From a virus (lineage: Duplodnaviria; Heunggongvirae; Uroviricota; Caudoviricetes), in IMG/VR virus record IMGVR_UViG_2513237361_000013: a DNA stretch of 36,955 nucleotides, one strand, 5' to 3'. The notes beneath the pieces were generated by a model. The model had not been told where the DNA came from, made no database searches, and saw only the letters and a list, made by a program, of their open reading frames with translations. This document shows, piece by piece, positions 1,915 to 8,816 of the stretch (its first letter is position 1; the number at the start of each line of letters is the position of its first letter). Both the position numbers and the translations under genes were made by a program.

Positions 1915-2868
1915 ATGCGGGCGAAACTTCTGGGAATAGTCCTGACAACCCCTATTGCGATCAACTCTTTTGCTTCTACCGAGACTTTATCGTTTACTCC
2001 TGACAACATAAATGCGGACATTAGTCTTGGAACTCTGAGCGGAAAAACAAAAGAGCGTGTTTATCTAGCCGAAGAAGGAAGCCGAAAAGTCAGTCAACTT
2101 GACTGGAAATTCAATAACGCTGCAATTATTAAAGGTGCAATTAATTGGGATTTGATGCCTCAGATATCTATCGGGGCTGCTGGTTGGACAACACTCGGCA
2201 GCCGAGGTGGCAATATGGTCGATCAGGACTGGATGGATTCCAGTAACCCCGGAACCTGGACGGATGAAAGTAGACATCCTGATACACAACTCAATTATGC
2301 CAACGAATTTGATCTGAATATCAAAGGCTGGCTCCTCAACGAACCCAATTACCGCCTGGGACTCATGGCCGGATATCAGGAAAGCCGTTATAGCTTTACA
2401 GCCAGAGGTGGTTCCTATATCTACAGTTCTGAGGAGGGATTCAGAGATGATATCGGCTCCTTCCCGAATGGAGAAAGAGCAATCGGCTACAAACAACGTT
2501 TTAAAATGCCCTACATTGGCTTGACTGGAAGTTATCGTTATGAAGATTTTGAGCTAGGTGGCACATTTAAATACAGCGGCTGGGTGGAATCATCTGATAA
2601 CGATGAACACTATGACCCGGGAAAAAGAATCACTTATCGCAGTAAGGTCAAAGACCAAAATTACTATTCTGTTGCAGTCAATGCAGGTTATTACGTCACA
2701 CCTAACGCAAAAGTTTATGTTGAAGGCGCATGGAATCGGGTTACGAATAAAAAAGGTAATACTTCACTTTATGATCACAATAATAACACTTCAGACTACA
2801 GCAAAAATGGAGCAGGCATAGAAAACTATAACTTCATCACTACTGCTGGTCTTAAGTACACATTTTAA
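1915..2868 (+). CDS. ompT: outer membrane protease OmpT (omptin)
   Basis: 317-aa ORF matching E. coli OmpT essentially end to end from memory (MRAKLLGIVLTTPIA...AGLKYTF). GGAG Shine-Dalgarno 8 nt upstream of the ATG. Confidence 0.95.
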   Translation: MRAKLLGIVLTTPIAINSFASTETLSFTPDNINADISLGTLSGKTKERVYLAEEGSRKVSQLDWKFNNAAIIKGAINWDLMPQISIGAAGWTTLGSRGGNMVDQDWMDSSNPGTWTDESRHPDTQLNYANEFDLNIKGWLLNEPNYRLGLMAGYQESRYSFTARGGSYIYSSEEGFRDDIGSFPNGERAIGYKQRFKMPYIGLTGSYRYEDFELGGTFKYSGWVESSDNDEHYDPGKRITYRSKVKDQNYYSVAVNAGYYVTPNAKVYVEGAWNRVTNKKGNTSLYDHNNNTSDYSKNGAGIENYNFITTAGLKYTF

Positions 2869-3117: not shown

Positions 3118-3867
3118 TCAGTCAATTGTTTTGTTTATTCCATCTGTGACGCCGATTATTTTCTCAAAATAATGAGATGGCGTGACACCATAATAATCTT
3201 TAAATGCACATATGAAATATGAAGTACTGTTATAGCCACATTTCTGGGCTACGACATTGATAGAATAAGAGTTTGAAGTTATGAGTTTTTTTGCATACCT
3301 CATCCTAGTATCTCTCAATATTTCAGTAAATGACGTTCCTTCATCCCTTAATCTTTTTTTTATTAAACTTTCACTCGTATAAATCAATTCCGCAATATCT
3401 TTTAAATGCCATTGCCGCTCAATATTAAAACTGATTATTCCAGTAATTTTACAGGTAAATGTATTTATATTTGTTAGTATAAATGAATTTACACTTTCGC
3501 GTTTTTTGAACATGGCAAGTAAGGATATACATAGTCTTTCTTTTAACCAAAGGGAGTGTGAGTCTGCTATTTTAATCCCTTCAAACAGAGAAAAAACAAG
3601 CGATAATGGAGGTTCCTCTTCAGCAATATAGCCATTCTTATCAAGAGTAAATTTGCCAGGCAACTCATTATTCACGTCGATAAAAAAGGATAAACATGTT
3701 TTCTTATCTATATCAACAATTCTTAGTTTAGAGGGGCATACTGGTAACTCTCTTCTAATTTTGTCGCTTACAATAAACAATGAATTTTTTTTGAACGAGA
3801 TAACTCTCCTGTTTATAATTAAATCAAATGATTGACAGATGAAAACTACGGAGCAAACATAATCCAT
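3118..3867 (-). CDS. appY: AraC-family transcriptional regulator AppY
   Basis: 249-aa ORF with a C-terminal AraC helix-turn-helix ([28 protein letters not shown]). N-terminus [14 protein letters not shown] and the convergent position next to ompT match the K-12 appY/ompT arrangement. EnvY cannot be fully excluded without a search. Confidence 0.75.
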
Positions 3868-4443
3868 CTTGCACCTATCATAAAATTAAAACAAGTTGAT
3901 AGTAGTCAAATAACAACCAATTAAATACACAATCATAATCAGGATGATGTGCATTTATATTTTTATACACAAAATTATAGTTTGCAAATTTTAATAAATT
4001 TCATTTAAGATTAAATTATTATATGTATATTGTTTTTTATTTTAACGTATTTCAAAGTTACATTTTTTCAACGATTACCATGCTTTTTATTAACATAAAC
4101 TCACTACAACGCACCTGAAACCTCTTGCTATATATATGTCAACCGTTTGAATTTAAAATAAAAAGAGTATCATTTTTACTTGCATTTCTTATCAAGTCAC
4201 ATTCAACAACAGTAAAAAAACATTATTAGAACCATTCAATTAACAAAAAACCAACATTCAGCTTGCTTAATTTTTCTTTATTAAACGATATTGAAAATCA
4301 ATTGATAAAATACATCTAAACAACCTTTTGGGGCGCAAAAGCATAACATCAAACAAACAAATAACACACCGAAAAAACTCACAATTAATAACCTATGATA
4401 TACATACTGTTTATTATGGTTGAATAAGCCACTCGATATCTGG
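3868..4443 (-). promoter_or_regulatory. AT-rich upstream regulatory region of appY (likely nucleoid-protein-bound)
   Basis: About 570 bp of strongly AT-rich non-coding DNA immediately 5-prime of the appY start, with no credible ORF. Confidence 0.4.
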
Positions 4444-4543
4444 TGCTACGGAAGTGTCCACACGGTTTAGCAACACCCGATACTTTTTCCTGGCTTCCAG
4501 CAACGGGGTTTCTTCCTCCGTTGCATATACAGCTCACCTTTTT

Positions 4544-4837
4544 TCACCCACGATTAACCAACAGCCAGACCAGCAGACACGCCACCACCGGCACAGCAAA
4601 ATCCATCAGGCTTGCCACATCCCAAGCTCGCGGATCAAAACCGCCCCACCACGGCATATTCATACGCTTGCCATGTCCGAACATTTCAATCCAGCGATAT
4701 TCTGCCTGGGTGTGTTCACGCGCAATGAAGAACGTACAACCAGCTATCGCTCCGTAAGCCCAGTTTCCGGTAAAAAGACCAACCAGTATCTGCGCAGCCA
4801 CAGCACAAAGTGCATGAAGTAAGGGGCTTATATCCAT
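4544..4837 (-). CDS. small two-TM membrane protein (hypothetical; distal gene of stf operon)
   Basis: 97 aa with hydrophobic helices LLHALCAVAAQILVGLFTG and FAVPVVACLLVWLLV. AAGGAGG sits 5 nt upstream of the ATG and 12 nt after the stop of the preceding gene. Confidence 0.55.
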   Translation of the reverse strand: MDISPLLHALCAVAAQILVGLFTGNWAYGAIAGCTFFIAREHTQAEYRWIEMFGHGKRMNMPWWGGFDPRAWDVASLMDFAVPVVACLLVWLLVNRG

Positions 4838-4849
4838 TATTTCCTCCTT

Positions 4850-5128
4850 TCAGCTCCATTCCCGAAGCGGTGTTTCCAGCTCCACGACATAATCAGAGAA
4901 TACAGAAACATCAAACAAGTCATCAAGAATGCGAATGTTGACAAAATAACCGTCATTCCGGATACAGACAGGTTCTCCCTCTTCAGTTACCCCTGTTTCT
5001 GTGTAGGTGAAACCAATTTCATCGACTAACAGTTTATTCTGGAGGTCTTCATCTTCCTCCCAGTCAAGAGATGACAGGAAGGATTTAAACTCTCTGTTTC
5101 CAGGAAATTTCAAAGTTAAATCTTTCAT
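4850..5128 (-). CDS. small acidic protein translationally coupled to stf (possible tail-fibre accessory/chaperone)
   Basis: 92 aa. Its ATG overlaps the stf stop as ATGA, and an AAGGAGG Shine-Dalgarno lies inside the stf 3-prime end. Confidence 0.5.
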   Translation of the reverse strand: MKDLTLKFPGNREFKSFLSSLDWEEDEDLQNKLLVDEIGFTYTETGVTEEGEPVCIRNDGYFVNIRILDDLFDVSVFSDYVVELETPLREWS

Positions 5129-7146
5129 ACTGCCTCCTTGATTTGCCTGTCATTTAATTCTTTAAACCAGACTCTGAAATTTCTGATGTGTCCAAACAAA
5201 TGACGCGTTCCTGCTGCGGTCTGCCCACCAAACCGGTACGATGTTGCTGTAACTCCAAATATTTTACCATTAAGGTTTGTTGTATAATTACCATTGCATA
5301 TTGCATTTACTGATAAATCAGATTTAGCTCTCACACCCACAATGAACCTTTCTCCATCTGAGGCAATTTGTGGCTGAACCATTCCTACGTTGGCGCTTAT
5401 CTTTCCTGTTGAAACAAACCCCAGCGATAAATAATTATCATCAATACTGTGCCCTCCAACATCAAATATCCTTGGCGCAACATTGGGCGGTGTACTCCAG
5501 TTCCTGCTTACTTCGCACAATACCGTAAAAGGCCGTGTTGACAGGTTATTCTGCGATGGGATAGTAACCACATCACTTGCGCGTGTTGTTGGCATTGTAG
5601 TTACAATAAATGACGATGCCGTATTGCCCAGTTCAATTTGCGGCGTCGTCATGGTTAATGTTGAGTCATCATAGAATGGCTCATTACTTATTTTATTTGT
5701 CATATAAAAAGCACAGTTAACGGTATCAATGTCCGTATTAGCTGTATAAGTGGCCTCATAGTAGGTCCACTCGCCCTGTTGTTCAGCTTTGGCTGTTATA
5801 AGGGATGTATTACCGCTTACTGTTGCGATCCGGGTATCCAGATCAAGATAAGAGTCAGCAGAGAAGGTATCTGTTCCACCAATAATAACTGAAACTCTTA
5901 ACCTGCATCGTGCTTTAGCGCCTTTAACCCGGCACGAAAAAGTGAAACATTCACCACTTGCCAGCGGGAATCTGTCTGCTGCAACCACACCATGCACAGT
6001 ATAGCCACCTGTTGTTCCCACTATACTTTCCGTGGGTGTCACCGTGGCATAATTGAACCCCTGTTTATCAGTGCCAAATGTTTTATTCAGTGCGGAATGA
6101 ACAGTCCATGAGTCTGGTTTATTTGAGTTCCTCAGATAATTTGTCCTCTGTCCTTCAATCAATAAGCCATCGCGCTCAAATCGCGGTTCATCAACTTCAG
6201 CAAGCTTGAGTTGGCCGGACTTATTAATATACGTTGCTGTTGAAGCACGTTTAAACTTAACAATCTTGTCGCCTGGCATTGTTATTTCATCGTCACCAAT
6301 AACAATCTTTTTATATGATGGCGAAAACCCCGTAATCATATCCAGTGTATCGTTAAACGGTATCCATACATCAGGCAGCGGCGGCACTATATTCGCATAG
6401 GGCTCTGCAGTCACTTCCGCTGCGGCTTCTGCGCGGTCTGCCGCCTTTTCTGCTCGTGTCGCTGCCGACAGAGCCTCATCCTTTTTCTGCCCGGCCTTTG
6501 TTGCGTCTGCTGCGGCCTCCCGCGCTTTTGTGGTGGCGATTCCGGCATTTTCAGCGGCTGACTCTGCATTACGGCGGGAAGCCTCTTCACTGTCTGCGGA
6601 GGCTTCCTCTGACGCACGGGCATTTGTCTCTGAATGTTCTGCCGCTGTTGCTGCATTTTGTGCGGCTGTTTTTGAAGAAGCTGCCGCTTTCGCGCTGTTA
6701 CCTGCATTCGTCTCTGATGTTTTCGCCGCGTTCCTGGACGATGCCGCTGCTGTTTCTGATTTCTTTGCTGCCGCTGCGCTCTGAGAGGCGGCTTCAGCGT
6801 TGCGTGCCGCCTCTTCCACCATCTTTTCAAAACGATACAGTGCCTCCGGACGAACATCATCTTCTGTTGCAGCGCCCAGAAAATCATTCAATGTCCCCGG
6901 CTTAGAATCCTCATACACGGTGATGGTCCCGGCATGTGAAGGCGGAAAACCTTCAACCAGCAGGGCGACGCTGTACTGGCCATACTCAACATCCATGCTG
7001 TAACGTCCGGCTTCATCCGGATTTTCTGAGGCCACCGTGTTCACCACAACTGTGGTGCTGTTACGTTTTGCTTTGAGCTGAATGGTGCAGTTCTGTATCG
7101 GTTTTCCTGCACCGTCTTTCAGCACACCTGAAATCTGTACTGCCAT
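5125..7146 (-). CDS. stf: side tail fibre protein (Stf-like) with Ala/Ser-rich repeat linker and distinct C-terminal domain
   Basis: N-terminal domain MAVQISGVLKDGAGKPIQNCTIQLKAKRNSTTVVVNTVASENPDEAGRYSMDVEYGQYSV matches the lambda-type Stf N-terminus. Start is taken at ATG 7144-7146 (GGAG 6 nt upstream); the longer ORF-track start at 7209 overlaps J. Confidence 0.85.
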   Translation of the reverse strand: MAVQISGVLKDGAGKPIQNCTIQLKAKRNSTTVVVNTVASENPDEAGRYSMDVEYGQYSVALLVEGFPPSHAGTITVYEDSKPGTLNDFLGAATEDDVRPEALYRFEKMVEEAARNAEAASQSAAAAKKSETAAASSRNAAKTSETNAGNSAKAAASSKTAAQNAATAAEHSETNARASEEASADSEEASRRNAESAAENAGIATTKAREAAADATKAGQKKDEALSAATRAEKAADRAEAAAEVTAEPYANIVPPLPDVWIPFNDTLDMITGFSPSYKKIVIGDDEITMPGDKIVKFKRASTATYINKSGQLKLAEVDEPRFERDGLLIEGQRTNYLRNSNKPDSWTVHSALNKTFGTDKQGFNYATVTPTESIVGTTGGYTVHGVVAADRFPLASGECFTFSCRVKGAKARCRLRVSVIIGGTDTFSADSYLDLDTRIATVSGNTSLITAKAEQQGEWTYYEATYTANTDIDTVNCAFYMTNKISNEPFYDDSTLTMTTPQIELGNTASSFIVTTMPTTRASDVVTIPSQNNLSTRPFTVLCEVSRNWSTPPNVAPRIFDVGGHSIDDNYLSLGFVSTGKISANVGMVQPQIASDGERFIVGVRAKSDLSVNAICNGNYTTNLNGKIFGVTATSYRFGGQTAAGTRHLFGHIRNFRVWFKELNDRQIKEAV

Positions 7147-7150
7147 ATTC

Positions 7151-7180
7151 ACTCCACAAATAAAAAAGGCACCATTTCTG
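7151..7180 (-). terminator. intrinsic terminator between J and stf
   Basis: Stem GGCACC (7163-7168) / GGTGCC (7175-7180) with a 6-nt loop, followed on the minus strand by TTTTTTATTTGT, just before the stf Shine-Dalgarno. Confidence 0.55.
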
Positions 7181-7205
7181 GTGCCCGAATTTGGGGTTTT
7201 AAAAT

Positions 7206-8816
7206 TCAACTGATACTGATGCCGGCTGTTGATTTCTTCATCACGACAACAAGAAGGTCGCTGATACTGGTCGTTGGCGTCCAGTTATTTGCACCATATG
7301 AAGAAACATTGAAAGTCAGGGTGACATGGCCGTGTCCGGCAGGCATATCAATGACTGATGAAAATACCCTGCTGACATCCGTCGCGGGTTGCTGAAAGAT
7401 TTCCTGTCCGTTCTTCAGCACCTGCAGCTTACAGGTTGAATACCAGTATGACTGTTGGTTGTTGCTGTTGAAGTTTTCATGCTTACCACCGCGAAACAGA
7501 ACGGGGGGGATTACTATCTGACGGTCAAAAGCCTGGTCATCGTACACCGTGACCGTTATTGTACCGCTGGCATAACTGCTATTTCTCGGAAAGGCTTTTC
7601 CCACCGTTTTAACAATATCGCCTTCAATCTGGTTGGCTGACAGTTTTCCCAGAATCCGGCAGTTCTGATTAATCGTGACATTGTTGAGCGTCCCGGAGTT
7701 CGCGTTCACGTTACCGCTGATATCCGCATTTTTCGCCGTCAGCCGCCCGTCCGGTGTCAGGGAAAATGCCGGAGGATTACCGCCGCTGGTAATGGTGGGA
7801 GCCGTCAGATATTTCAGGAACACTTCATTCATAAATATCTGATCGCCCTGACCAACAAACATCGGCTTTGTATTGCCATTCGCAGGATTAATCATCGCAA
7901 TCCTGTCCGCCGCCAGCAGCACCTGACTCTGCATACCGTCAGGGGTATTCTCAATACCGGCACCAATACCCGCGATATAAAGGCGTCCGTCCTGCATCTG
8001 CTGCAGCTTCACAGCCCACATGCTGTTCAGGTTATTATTTGTATCAACCTGAACCTTCTGTATCTGCTGGATCGCTGCACTCTGGTCTTCCAGTTTCTTA
8101 TTGACGGTCTGCGTGATTTCATTGCTGACATCCGTAATGGACGTCCTGATTTCAGCCAGGTCAGGCGCAAGCTGACCGTTATCAATCTGCGTCCACAACT
8201 CCTGAGCCAGATGGGTTTTCCCTATCTCTCCTTTGAAAAAATCCAGATAGCCGGATGCATCATCACTCGGCTGGCCAACAGCCTCCACAAATGCCGATTT
8301 GCCAACGGTGTTCACACTGCGAATGTAAAAATAATAATCATGGCCCGGTTTGATATTGATACTAGCGGCTATCCAGTACAGCGCCGTACCAAGATAACGC
8401 GCGCTGGCTTCAACCTGCCTGATATCCGCAATCCGCTTTTCCGAGAACCAGAACTCAAACTGTACCGTCGGATCATAAACGGCAAGATGCGGCGTTGCGG
8501 TTATCTGAAAATAGCCCGGCGTCAGCTCAATCCGCGATGGCGCTGCCGGTGCGGCAATCCGGAACGATACCGACGCCGGATCCCCCTGCTGCCCCCACGC
8601 ATTTACCGCCCGGACTGTCAGCCTGTAGTTCCCCAGCGCCAGTTGCCTGAAGCGGTATGTGGTTTCCGTCGTCCTGGCCGTGCTGACCAGAAGAAATGTC
8701 CGGTGAAATGCTGGTTCTGGTGCCGGAAAGGCTGGAGATGCTGAAGGTGTTGCGAAATACCTGCCCGGTGTACAGCGGATGCATACCTCTGTCGGACCTG
8801 GAAAGAACAGTCCGTA
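7206..8816 (-). pseudogene. J: tail tip/host-specificity protein J, C-terminal portion only (5-prime truncated)
   Basis: Open frame of 537 codons closed upstream by TAA at 8817-8819. Contains lambda-J-like segments ([32 protein letters not shown]..., [40 protein letters not shown]). Full J is about 1100 aa; there is no start codon in frame between 8316 and 8816. Confidence 0.85.

Follow-up and report, generated by a model that had tools for sequence, protein, structure and literature searches.

A phage 21-type side-fibre module pairs a lectin-tipped Stf with a probable partner protein and with a membrane protein whose family lies beside receptor-binding genes

In the IMG/VR virus record IMGVR_UViG_2513237361_000013 (Caudoviricetes), a stretch of 36,955 nucleotides (nt) that is called the window below, three minus-strand genes between positions 7146 and 4544 form one translationally coupled unit. 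They encode a side tail fibre, Stf, of 673 amino acids (aa), an acidic alpha/beta protein of 92 aa (phrog_1361) and a membrane protein of 97 aa (phrog_1443, UniRef name 'Ybl63'). The stf gene runs from an ATG at 7146 to a stop at 5125, and this start is supported because the Pfam domain phage_tail_N aligns with residues 1–131 counted from that ATG. The ATG of the 92-aa gene (5128–4850) overlaps the stf stop as ATGA, and the 97-aa gene (4837–4544), the last gene of the late operon, starts 12 nt past the stop of the 92-aa gene. The sequence AAGGAGG stands at 5139–5133, 4 nt before the ATG of the 92-aa gene, and at 4849–4843, 5 nt before that of the 97-aa gene, and the ribosome site of stf is GGAG only. 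AAGGAGG is not above chance overall (5 copies in 36.9 kb against 4.0 expected), and two of the five copies in the window are located exactly at the starts of the two small genes. An intrinsic terminator (GGGCACCAGAAATGGTGCC followed by a T-run; 7186–7167, minus strand), detected by a terminator scan and by inspection of the sequence, lies between stf and the remnant of gene J, 20 nt ahead of the stf ribosome site. An earlier sequence-only reading of the interval had described the overlapping and 12-nt junctions, the Shine-Dalgarno sequences of both small genes, the terminator ahead of stf and the acidic nature of the 92-aa protein (22 D+E against 8 K+R), and all of these were confirmed.

Both small open reading frames are, to judge from their conservation, real genes, because dN/dS (the ratio of nonsynonymous to synonymous substitution rates) among the E. 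coli copies is 0.13 for the 97-aa gene and 0.29–0.35 for the 92/93-aa gene. The GC content of the 97-aa gene is 52.4%, against 41.2% for the 92-aa gene and 42.5% for the part of stf that encodes the tip (window 4544–6366), a difference to which the amino-acid composition of a membrane protein may contribute. This difference suggests that the 97-aa gene may have come from elsewhere than the 92-aa gene and the stf tip, and it fits a cassette made up of two evolutionary units. A consensus scan, which is weak evidence, found no promoter-like minus-strand site in the roughly 1.2 kb ahead of the start of the 97-aa gene, the closest one being at 6077–6049, inside stf. No terminator was found by the scan past 4544. 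As far as can be judged from these signals, the 97-aa protein is probably made late. The suggestion that the 97-aa gene is a moron was therefore borne out in its differing GC content, but not in a promoter and terminator of its own, neither of which appeared in the scans.

The interval forms the distal part of a late operon, that of a lambdoid prophage of the phage 21 type which truncation of J has left defective, and it holds a swapped-in three-gene receptor-binding cassette. Gene order and DNA identity show this module to be the side-fibre module of coliphage 21 (genes 22–24), which about one in three complete E. coli genomes appears to carry. The phage 21 record (OL657228) contains these three genes as CPT_21_22, CPT_21_23 and CPT_21_24, in unchanged order; the 12-nt junction and the ribosome sites are also the same, and the same terminator is annotated there upstream of the side-fibre gene. 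The small-gene region (window 4469–5198) is 95.5% identical in DNA to that of phage 21, and the 97-aa protein is 100% identical. That record annotates the three products as 'side tail fiber', hypothetical protein and putative membrane protein, and gives no function for the small proteins. Besides phage 21, about 50 sequenced lambdoid phages show this gene order at more than 95% DNA identity, and in the best-matching of their records the small-gene region is 94–99% identical in DNA. Among 5426 complete E. coli genomes, the pair of small genes had a DNA match in 1918, with at least 80% query coverage in 1127, and at least 80% of the interval from stf to the 97-aa gene (window 4400–7250) was matched in 513.

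Stf consists of a lambda-type N-terminal anchor (aa 1–131), an alanine-rich coiled region and a lectin-like tip. The anchor matched Pfam phage_tail_N (PF08400) with E=2.3e-68 over residues 1–131, and the gene is located directly after the J remnant, so both the domain and the position are those of a lambda-type Stf. The tip matched NCBIfam NF048003 (GTA_spike_fiber) with E=3.5e-18, above the curated cutoff, which places a gene transfer agent (GTA) head-spike-fibre domain with a LamG-like end at aa 329–523. Searches against PHROGs gave phrog_1419 (E=8e-294) and phrog_5939 (E=4e-56), and there was a weak Pfam match to CBM_4_9; Stf does not carry an S74 intramolecular chaperone domain. By these family matches, the tip is a lectin-like jelly-roll of the LamG type, in the GTA head-spike family. 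It belongs to the same lectin-like family as the RcGTA head spike fibre (NF048003) and the phrog_5939 and phrog_1419 tail proteins; unlike in RcGTA, the domain is here grafted onto a lambda-type side-fibre shaft. Stf has retained the lambda-type anchor and bears a tip of the GTA head-spike/LamG kind. Homologous tips are found in Comamonas, Pantoea, Chelativorans, Leclercia and metagenome phages, where a member of the 97-aa family likewise comes after.

The sequence-only reading had noted that no canonical chaperone of the size of Tfa is present, and indeed there is no Tfa-sized open reading frame after stf at the locus. What follows is a 3' remnant of a lambda-type tail fibre assembly gene, tfa, recognized by frame translation: 39 codons at about 4533–4417 on the minus strand, beginning 10 bases past the stop of the 97-aa gene. 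At the equivalent stretch of NZ_OY754421 and UPEC132, PGAP annotates 'tail fiber assembly protein, incomplete', with the N-terminus missing. To judge from its sequence, the remnant is a recombination scar, left where a cassette of Stf tip and Tfa was replaced by the cassette of lectin tip, 92-aa and 97-aa genes.

The 92-aa protein matched phrog_1361 with E=1.4e-39 over residues 1–91 of a 92-position profile, and AlphaFold2 predicted a small alpha/beta domain with a predicted local distance difference test score (pLDDT) of 90. The model had no informative structural neighbour, and the protein had no Pfam match (the best was LUD_dom, E=0.11) and no match in NCBIfam or PADLOC. With no match to the Tfa families of Pfam or NCBIfam, it was rejected as a Tfa homologue. 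It shares with the Tfa of the lambda Stf/Tfa pair and with Mu/P2-type assembly proteins the position after stf, the coupling and the co-variation with the fibre tip; unlike Tfa, it lacks any sequence or family match, is half the size and has an alpha/beta fold, and a real tfa remnant lies downstream. Because it is inherited together with the tip, matches the tip in GC content, is coupled through ATGA and is followed by the tfa scar, the 92-aa protein is probably the cognate, cytoplasmic partner of the lectin tip in place of Tfa. Its role would most likely be in folding or assembly of the tip, or in an accessory function while bound to it. The sequence-only reading had counted homology of the 92-aa protein to Tfa, together with homology of the 97-aa protein to a housekeeping membrane protein, against itself. 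The first did not hold, yet half of the point stands in spirit, because the protein behaves as a tip-specific substitute for Tfa; as to the second, the 97-aa family does include chromosomal members.

Close homologues of the 92-aa protein in sequence searches came from Escherichia and Shigella only (45 clusters), and in E. coli the gene was directly 3' of stf wherever it was detected. The loci of the 92/93-aa gene in E. coli had two forms: 43 were arranged as here, and in 40 viral loci an additional S74 fibre gene separated the 93-aa gene from the 97-aa gene, which was still last. The extra fibre-like gene (234 or 346 aa, coiled coil plus Peptidase_S74) is located, for example, at 4918–5958 of locus L007 (E. 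ruysiae) and at 5286–5990 of locus L009 (Escherichia sp.). Downstream of homologous tips in Comamonas, Pantoea and a metagenomic siphovirus there are remote relatives of the 92-aa protein (hhalign probability 96%, E=2e-9). In total, the triad of fibre tip, 92-like protein and 97-aa family member was observed in 10 loci outside Escherichia, among them loci of Comamonas, Pantoea, Leclercia and metagenome contigs, although a few fibres with the same tip are without a 92-like protein. Longer 92-like proteins carrying DUF4376 were also considered and rejected, as the domain is absent.

A P1-like element of Leclercia (locus L240, 1892–6288) has two tandem LamG-type fibre genes, of 700 and 437 aa, each followed by its own homologue of the 92-aa protein (94 or 95 aa, E about 1e-16). 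The order of genes in this element is the two fibre pairs, a 97-aa family member, a LydA-type holin, LydB, Hdf and DarA. It seems that fixed pairs of fibre and partner replace the invertible S/U fibre region of P1 in this element.

The 97-aa protein matched phrog_1443 over its full length (E=2.4e-58), with all core residues present, and 'Ybl63' is the only name that any source gives to the family. A word-indexed search recovered 577 clusters, and an exhaustive profile search gave 438 representatives at 50% identity, all of them stand-alone proteins of about 60–150 aa with no domain fusion among them. The typical member has about 95 aa and an invariant RE..QAE loop. Twenty-six positions are invariant across members from Escherichia, Aeromonas, Comamonas and Leclercia, and a core of H8, G29, R40-E41, Q44-A45-E46, W72 and P83 is shared by 46 more diverged members. 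The family spans phages of alpha-, beta-, gamma- and delta-proteobacteria, and the RE..QAE..W..P core is kept from alpha- to gamma-proteobacteria. For loci in high-GC genomes, we drew our conclusions from precomputed gene calls and from PHROG or Pfam matches. Pfam gave one weak match below the cutoff (PhoR, E=0.037), with no match to Imm, GtrA or acyltransferase-3, and NCBIfam gave nothing. PADLOC gave nothing at E<=1, and PDB sequence profile searches with a close (A1) and a broad (A4) alignment of the family were likewise empty.

AlphaFold2 modelled the 97-aa protein with pLDDT 91 and helices at residues 4–23, 26–52 and 74–96, and the sequence has three hydrophobic stretches, the middle one of 14 residues. 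This conflicts with the phage 21 record, in which TMHMM gives two transmembrane domains for the orthologue. The earlier description as a two-helix membrane protein therefore stood as to its membrane character, and was amended as to the number of helices, three by AlphaFold2 against two by TMHMM. In the three-helix model, the mean number of K+R residues is 0.5 in the N-terminal tail, 0.0 in the first turn, 5.2 in the conserved loop and 0.7 in the C-terminal tail. By the positive-inside rule, this favours a topology with the N-terminus inside, the conserved loop in the cytoplasm and the C-terminus outside.

A protein of about 95 aa with three hydrophobic helices, encoded at the end of a late operon, resembles class I holins such as lambda S105 and P1 LydA/LydC, and a role in lysis, as a holin-like protein, an antiholin or a factor of lysis timing, was considered. 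Members of the family are located between fibre genes and the lysis cassette in several phages, before a GH108 endolysin gene in a metagenome contig (L242) and before lydA/lydB in the Leclercia P1-like element. A Comamonas locus (L003) has a similar pattern of gene lengths, with no lysis gene confirmed by PHROGs. The holin gene of T7, gp17.5, also follows a fibre gene. However, the C-terminal tail is not charged (a mean of 4 residues, with 0.7 K+R), and the invariant loop of 34 residues is atypical of holins. The place of the gene in the P1-like element is that of lydC, and identity of the family with LydC or LydA was rejected, as it is unrelated to both and coexists there with LydA and LydB. 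In most cases the gene is distant from endolysin genes; lambda-, P22- and P2-like phages have it far away from their lysis genes, in the window no lysis gene is next to it, and in chromosomes it occurs as a stable single gene. Phage 21 has its own pinholin and signal-anchor-release endolysin. We regard a role in lysis as very unlikely.

Genes of the 97-aa family travel with cassettes of receptor-binding proteins (RBPs) of any kind, and lie directly after the last fibre or spike gene in lambda-, P2-, P22-, P1- and SSU5-like phages. The family gene comes after a P2-like S74-domain fibre in Leclercia (gap 0), between two pectate-lyase tailspikes in Salmonella, after J plus a tailspike in Citrobacter and after a J-like protein of 2520 aa in Comamonas. 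In the P22-like JEP4, the tailspike gene overlaps the family gene by ATGA and int follows; in Halomonas phage phiHAP-1 the gene lies between a fibre-assembly gene and the sheath gene; and in the phage-plasmid PhiR41_1 it is also in an RBP-linked position. Eighty environmental viral contigs were recovered with remote members of the family as queries. Among the 52 distinct environmental loci with enough upstream sequence, which are not phylogenetically independent, the family gene came immediately after an open reading frame of at least 350 aa in 45, against 30% of control small open reading frames from the same loci (Fisher p=4e-12). The sampled neighbours were tail spike or fibre proteins by PHROGs. 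The proposed tie between the membrane protein, which does not look structural, and the receptor-binding fibre thus proved real and general, across five phage types and the environmental loci.

Such positions would also be expected of a membrane-anchored helper of RBP maturation or virion completion that is made late together with fibres and spikes and that is required for, or aids, their assembly or attachment. The gap from the RBP or chaperone gene to the family gene is between -4 and +12 nt in most loci, the position is the usual one for Tfa-type chaperones, and the conserved loop may be exposed to the cytoplasm, the compartment in which fibres fold. In environmental podovirus-like contigs, the gene is placed within structural modules, between the tailspike and the adaptor and head-closure genes. 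These features have to be set against the preceding RBPs, whose folds have no common domain, against the many fibres of the same type that have no 97-aa gene, and against chromosomal orthologues with no phage genes nearby. Viable HC6-type phages, moreover, retain only a decayed remnant of the gene. We consider a helper of this kind unlikely.

The remnant in Escherichia phage HC6 (locus L250, 3465–3620) consists of 51 codons (...RRRANIPWWGGFDWRAWDLPSLLD) and lies unannotated directly after the gene for an S74-type tailspike of 859 aa. The same decayed remnant was found in ST1UNAM, ZCEC08 and PBM-2/3, and it apparently came in with the 3' end of the spike gene. From their genome size and gene content, we take the HC6-type phages to be T1-like and virulent. 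In the decayed prophage A1_181, the 97-aa gene is a pseudogene with an internal stop, and in strain 118UI it is intact beside a pseudogenised stf, so that the evidence on retention in decayed prophages is anecdotal and mixed. Because the HC6-type phages hold a broken remnant and the A1_181 copy has an internal stop, the 97-aa protein looks dispensable for virion production, and accessory.

The sequence-only reading had proposed that the 97-aa protein masks a receptor, by analogy with cor-type genes. A prophage-expressed protein of the Cor/Llp type would inactivate the specific outer-membrane receptor of the fibre and thereby exclude phages that share it. The position beside the RBP gene is indeed that of cor in phi80, N15 and T1 and of llp in T5, and a link of such small non-structural genes to adsorption is plausible. 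The HC6-type remnant lies after the last tail fibre gene, beside oppositely oriented replication genes, which we take to be the slot of cor in T1. In JEP4 the family gene occupies the slot between tailspike and int, where P22 and Sf6 carry conversion genes. The specifics of the analogy found no support, however. Cor and Llp are outer-membrane lipoproteins matched to one receptor (FhuA), whereas the 97-aa protein is predicted by AlphaFold2 to be a polytopic inner-membrane protein without a lipoprotein signal: it has no L-x-x-C motif, no lipobox and no signal-peptidase-II site, and its first cysteines, at positions 11 and 34, are inside predicted membrane helices. Receptor masking fared no better, since the same protein, at 60–100% identity, comes after RBPs of at least four unrelated kinds (LamG-tip fibres, S74 fibres, pectate-lyase tailspikes and the giant J) and is not matchable to one receptor. 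The conserved loop is predicted to be cytoplasmic, the gene has no promoter of its own, and chromosomal orthologues exist. It is highly improbable that the protein acts as a mask of this type.

The surroundings of the module in the window are those of a rearranged prophage end. The truncated J gene (central fibre or tip attachment protein; 7209–8690, minus strand) was identified by Pfam Ig_GpJ_C and Phage_Tail_Tip and by tblastn with a full-length J. It keeps residues ~667–1159, the C-terminal ~490, with a frame break at about 8316 and an intact frame at 8315–7206 only. The lost part is replaced by a plus-strand island (9936–13611) with genes for a YdeO-like AraC regulator, a 103-aa open reading frame, an IbrA-like protein of the PAPS-reductase family, an IbrB-like protein and a 222-aa open reading frame. 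The arrangement of truncated J and island was found in no complete E. coli genome of the collection over at least 80% of its length. On the other side, the module adjoins a gene for an AppY/YdeO/GadX-like AraC regulator (3118–3867, minus strand; GC content 31%), and a gene for an omptin (OmpT-type) protease (1915–2868, plus strand) also flanks the prophage end. The ompT and AppY-like genes indicate, from gene context, a DLP12-type insertion region at the ompT/appY site, a neighbourhood that we take to be the DLP12 attachment region of K-12. Phage 21 differs in being a complete prophage with sitABCD after the module, whereas here the appY-like gene and ompT adjoin and J is truncated. In other strains as well, sitABCD takes the place beside the 97-aa gene, and other cargo, such as lom, is located around the same module.

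The family is not confined to phages but has chromosomal orthologues in Aeromonas and sphingomonads. In the chromosome of Aeromonas rivipollensis (locus L004, 6001–9645), the orthologue has a pirin gene on one side and a convergent RIO1/kinase-like gene on the other, with two lipid A acyltransferase genes beyond the latter. The same layout was found in L010, L012, L016 and L017, with conserved synteny in at least five Aeromonas species, and in sphingomonads the orthologue comes after ligA. Pooled upstream neighbours, counted with one genome per species, were mostly housekeeping genes, and they were heterogeneous (ligA, pirin, peptidase M3 and others), with no shared chromosomal partner of the family. 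The neighbourhood in Aeromonas possibly hints at an envelope-related role.

These orthologues bear on whether the gene is cargo of host physiology, that is, a bacterial housekeeping or stress membrane protein, such as a small enzyme or regulator working at the membrane interface, that phages acquired, with the place after the RBP gene serving as a permissive insertion hotspot. The conserved synteny with ordinary neighbours in Aeromonas and in several sphingomonads fits such an origin, as do the GC content unlike that of the rest of the cassette and the sitABCD and lom cargo around the module. The invariant polar residues H8, R40, E41, Q44, E46 and D79 resemble a binding or catalytic site. But the insertion point, which in most cases overlaps the RBP stop, varies extremely little among phages of every morphotype and of four proteobacterial classes. 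A hotspot alone would hardly explain this, and the gene has no promoter of its own. On this evidence, an origin as host cargo is rather unlikely. Among known systems, the Tai tail-assembly-interference systems were also compared and rejected, as they differ in location and in protein type.

The reading that we tentatively prefer, and that may well prove wrong, is that the 97-aa protein is an accessory inner-membrane protein that accompanies RBP cassettes and acts on a conserved component of the host membrane behind adsorption. Because unrelated RBP folds precede it, its conservation is stronger than that of any RBP and its chromosomal copies are stable, the protein probably touches neither the fibre nor a specific receptor. 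One candidate target would be the lipid-carrier-based supply of the surface glycans that lectin, spike and depolymerase RBPs use, and another would be the membrane step of genome entry. Either target could give a generic effect of exclusion or conversion, whatever RBP the phage carries. The working model comes from small phage proteins of the inner membrane whose action is on entry or on the synthesis of surface glycans, and some of which are encoded in or beside tail modules. They include T4 Imm, P22 SieA and HK97 gp15, and the products of the tailspike-adjacent conversion genes of epsilon15 and phiV10, P22 gtr and Sf6 oac. In contrast to the genes for these proteins, with their prophage or early expression, the 97-aa gene has late-operon signals only, and its product matches none of them in Pfam, PADLOC or PHROGs.

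Several observations weigh against an accessory role of this kind. Since the scan showed nothing promoter-like from which a lysogen could express the gene, and a terminator stands ahead of the operon, expression would come late in the lytic cycle, when exclusion makes little sense. Jumbo Aeromonas phages, which are presumably virulent, have intact relatives, and so does Aeromonas phage 62AhydR11PP, in its left-end region. The stable chromosomal orthologues point to a cell-autonomous function that need not concern phages. Sphingomonads presumably have no lipopolysaccharide, and an LPS-specific role is therefore unlikely. A literature search by accession, by the name Ybl63 and by topic found no paper on either small protein, and a solved structure was found for neither.

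A wider form of this reading, possible though rather doubtful, is that the 97-aa protein represents an unrecognised, near-universal family of RBP companions whose invariant site is enzyme-like. Some bacteria, and temperate phages of every morphotype, would use it on one conserved step at the envelope, for instance the supply of undecaprenyl-phosphate-linked glycans or DNA entry at the inner membrane, and it would form a receptor-independent class of exclusion or conversion proteins.

The module itself was already present in GenBank as phage 21 genes 22–24. What is new is the pairing of the LamG tip with the 92-aa protein as a Tfa-independent fibre cassette, the place of the 97-aa protein in a broad family that is systematically next after the RBP gene in phages of every tail type, and the chromosomal orthologues of that family. 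Receptor-binding cassettes are the phage parts most often swapped, both in nature and in engineered delivery particles. A lectin-tipped Stf that brings its own 92-aa partner instead of Tfa is relevant to grafting such tips onto lambda-type particles. The 97-aa family comprises 438 sequence clusters without annotation in Pfam, NCBIfam, PADLOC or the literature, and the hypothesis on its function is cheap to test, with one gene of 294 bp, the model phage 21 and K-12 hosts. If the 97-aa protein alters entry or the supply of surface glycans, it would be a common and overlooked determinant of phage susceptibility in lysogens.

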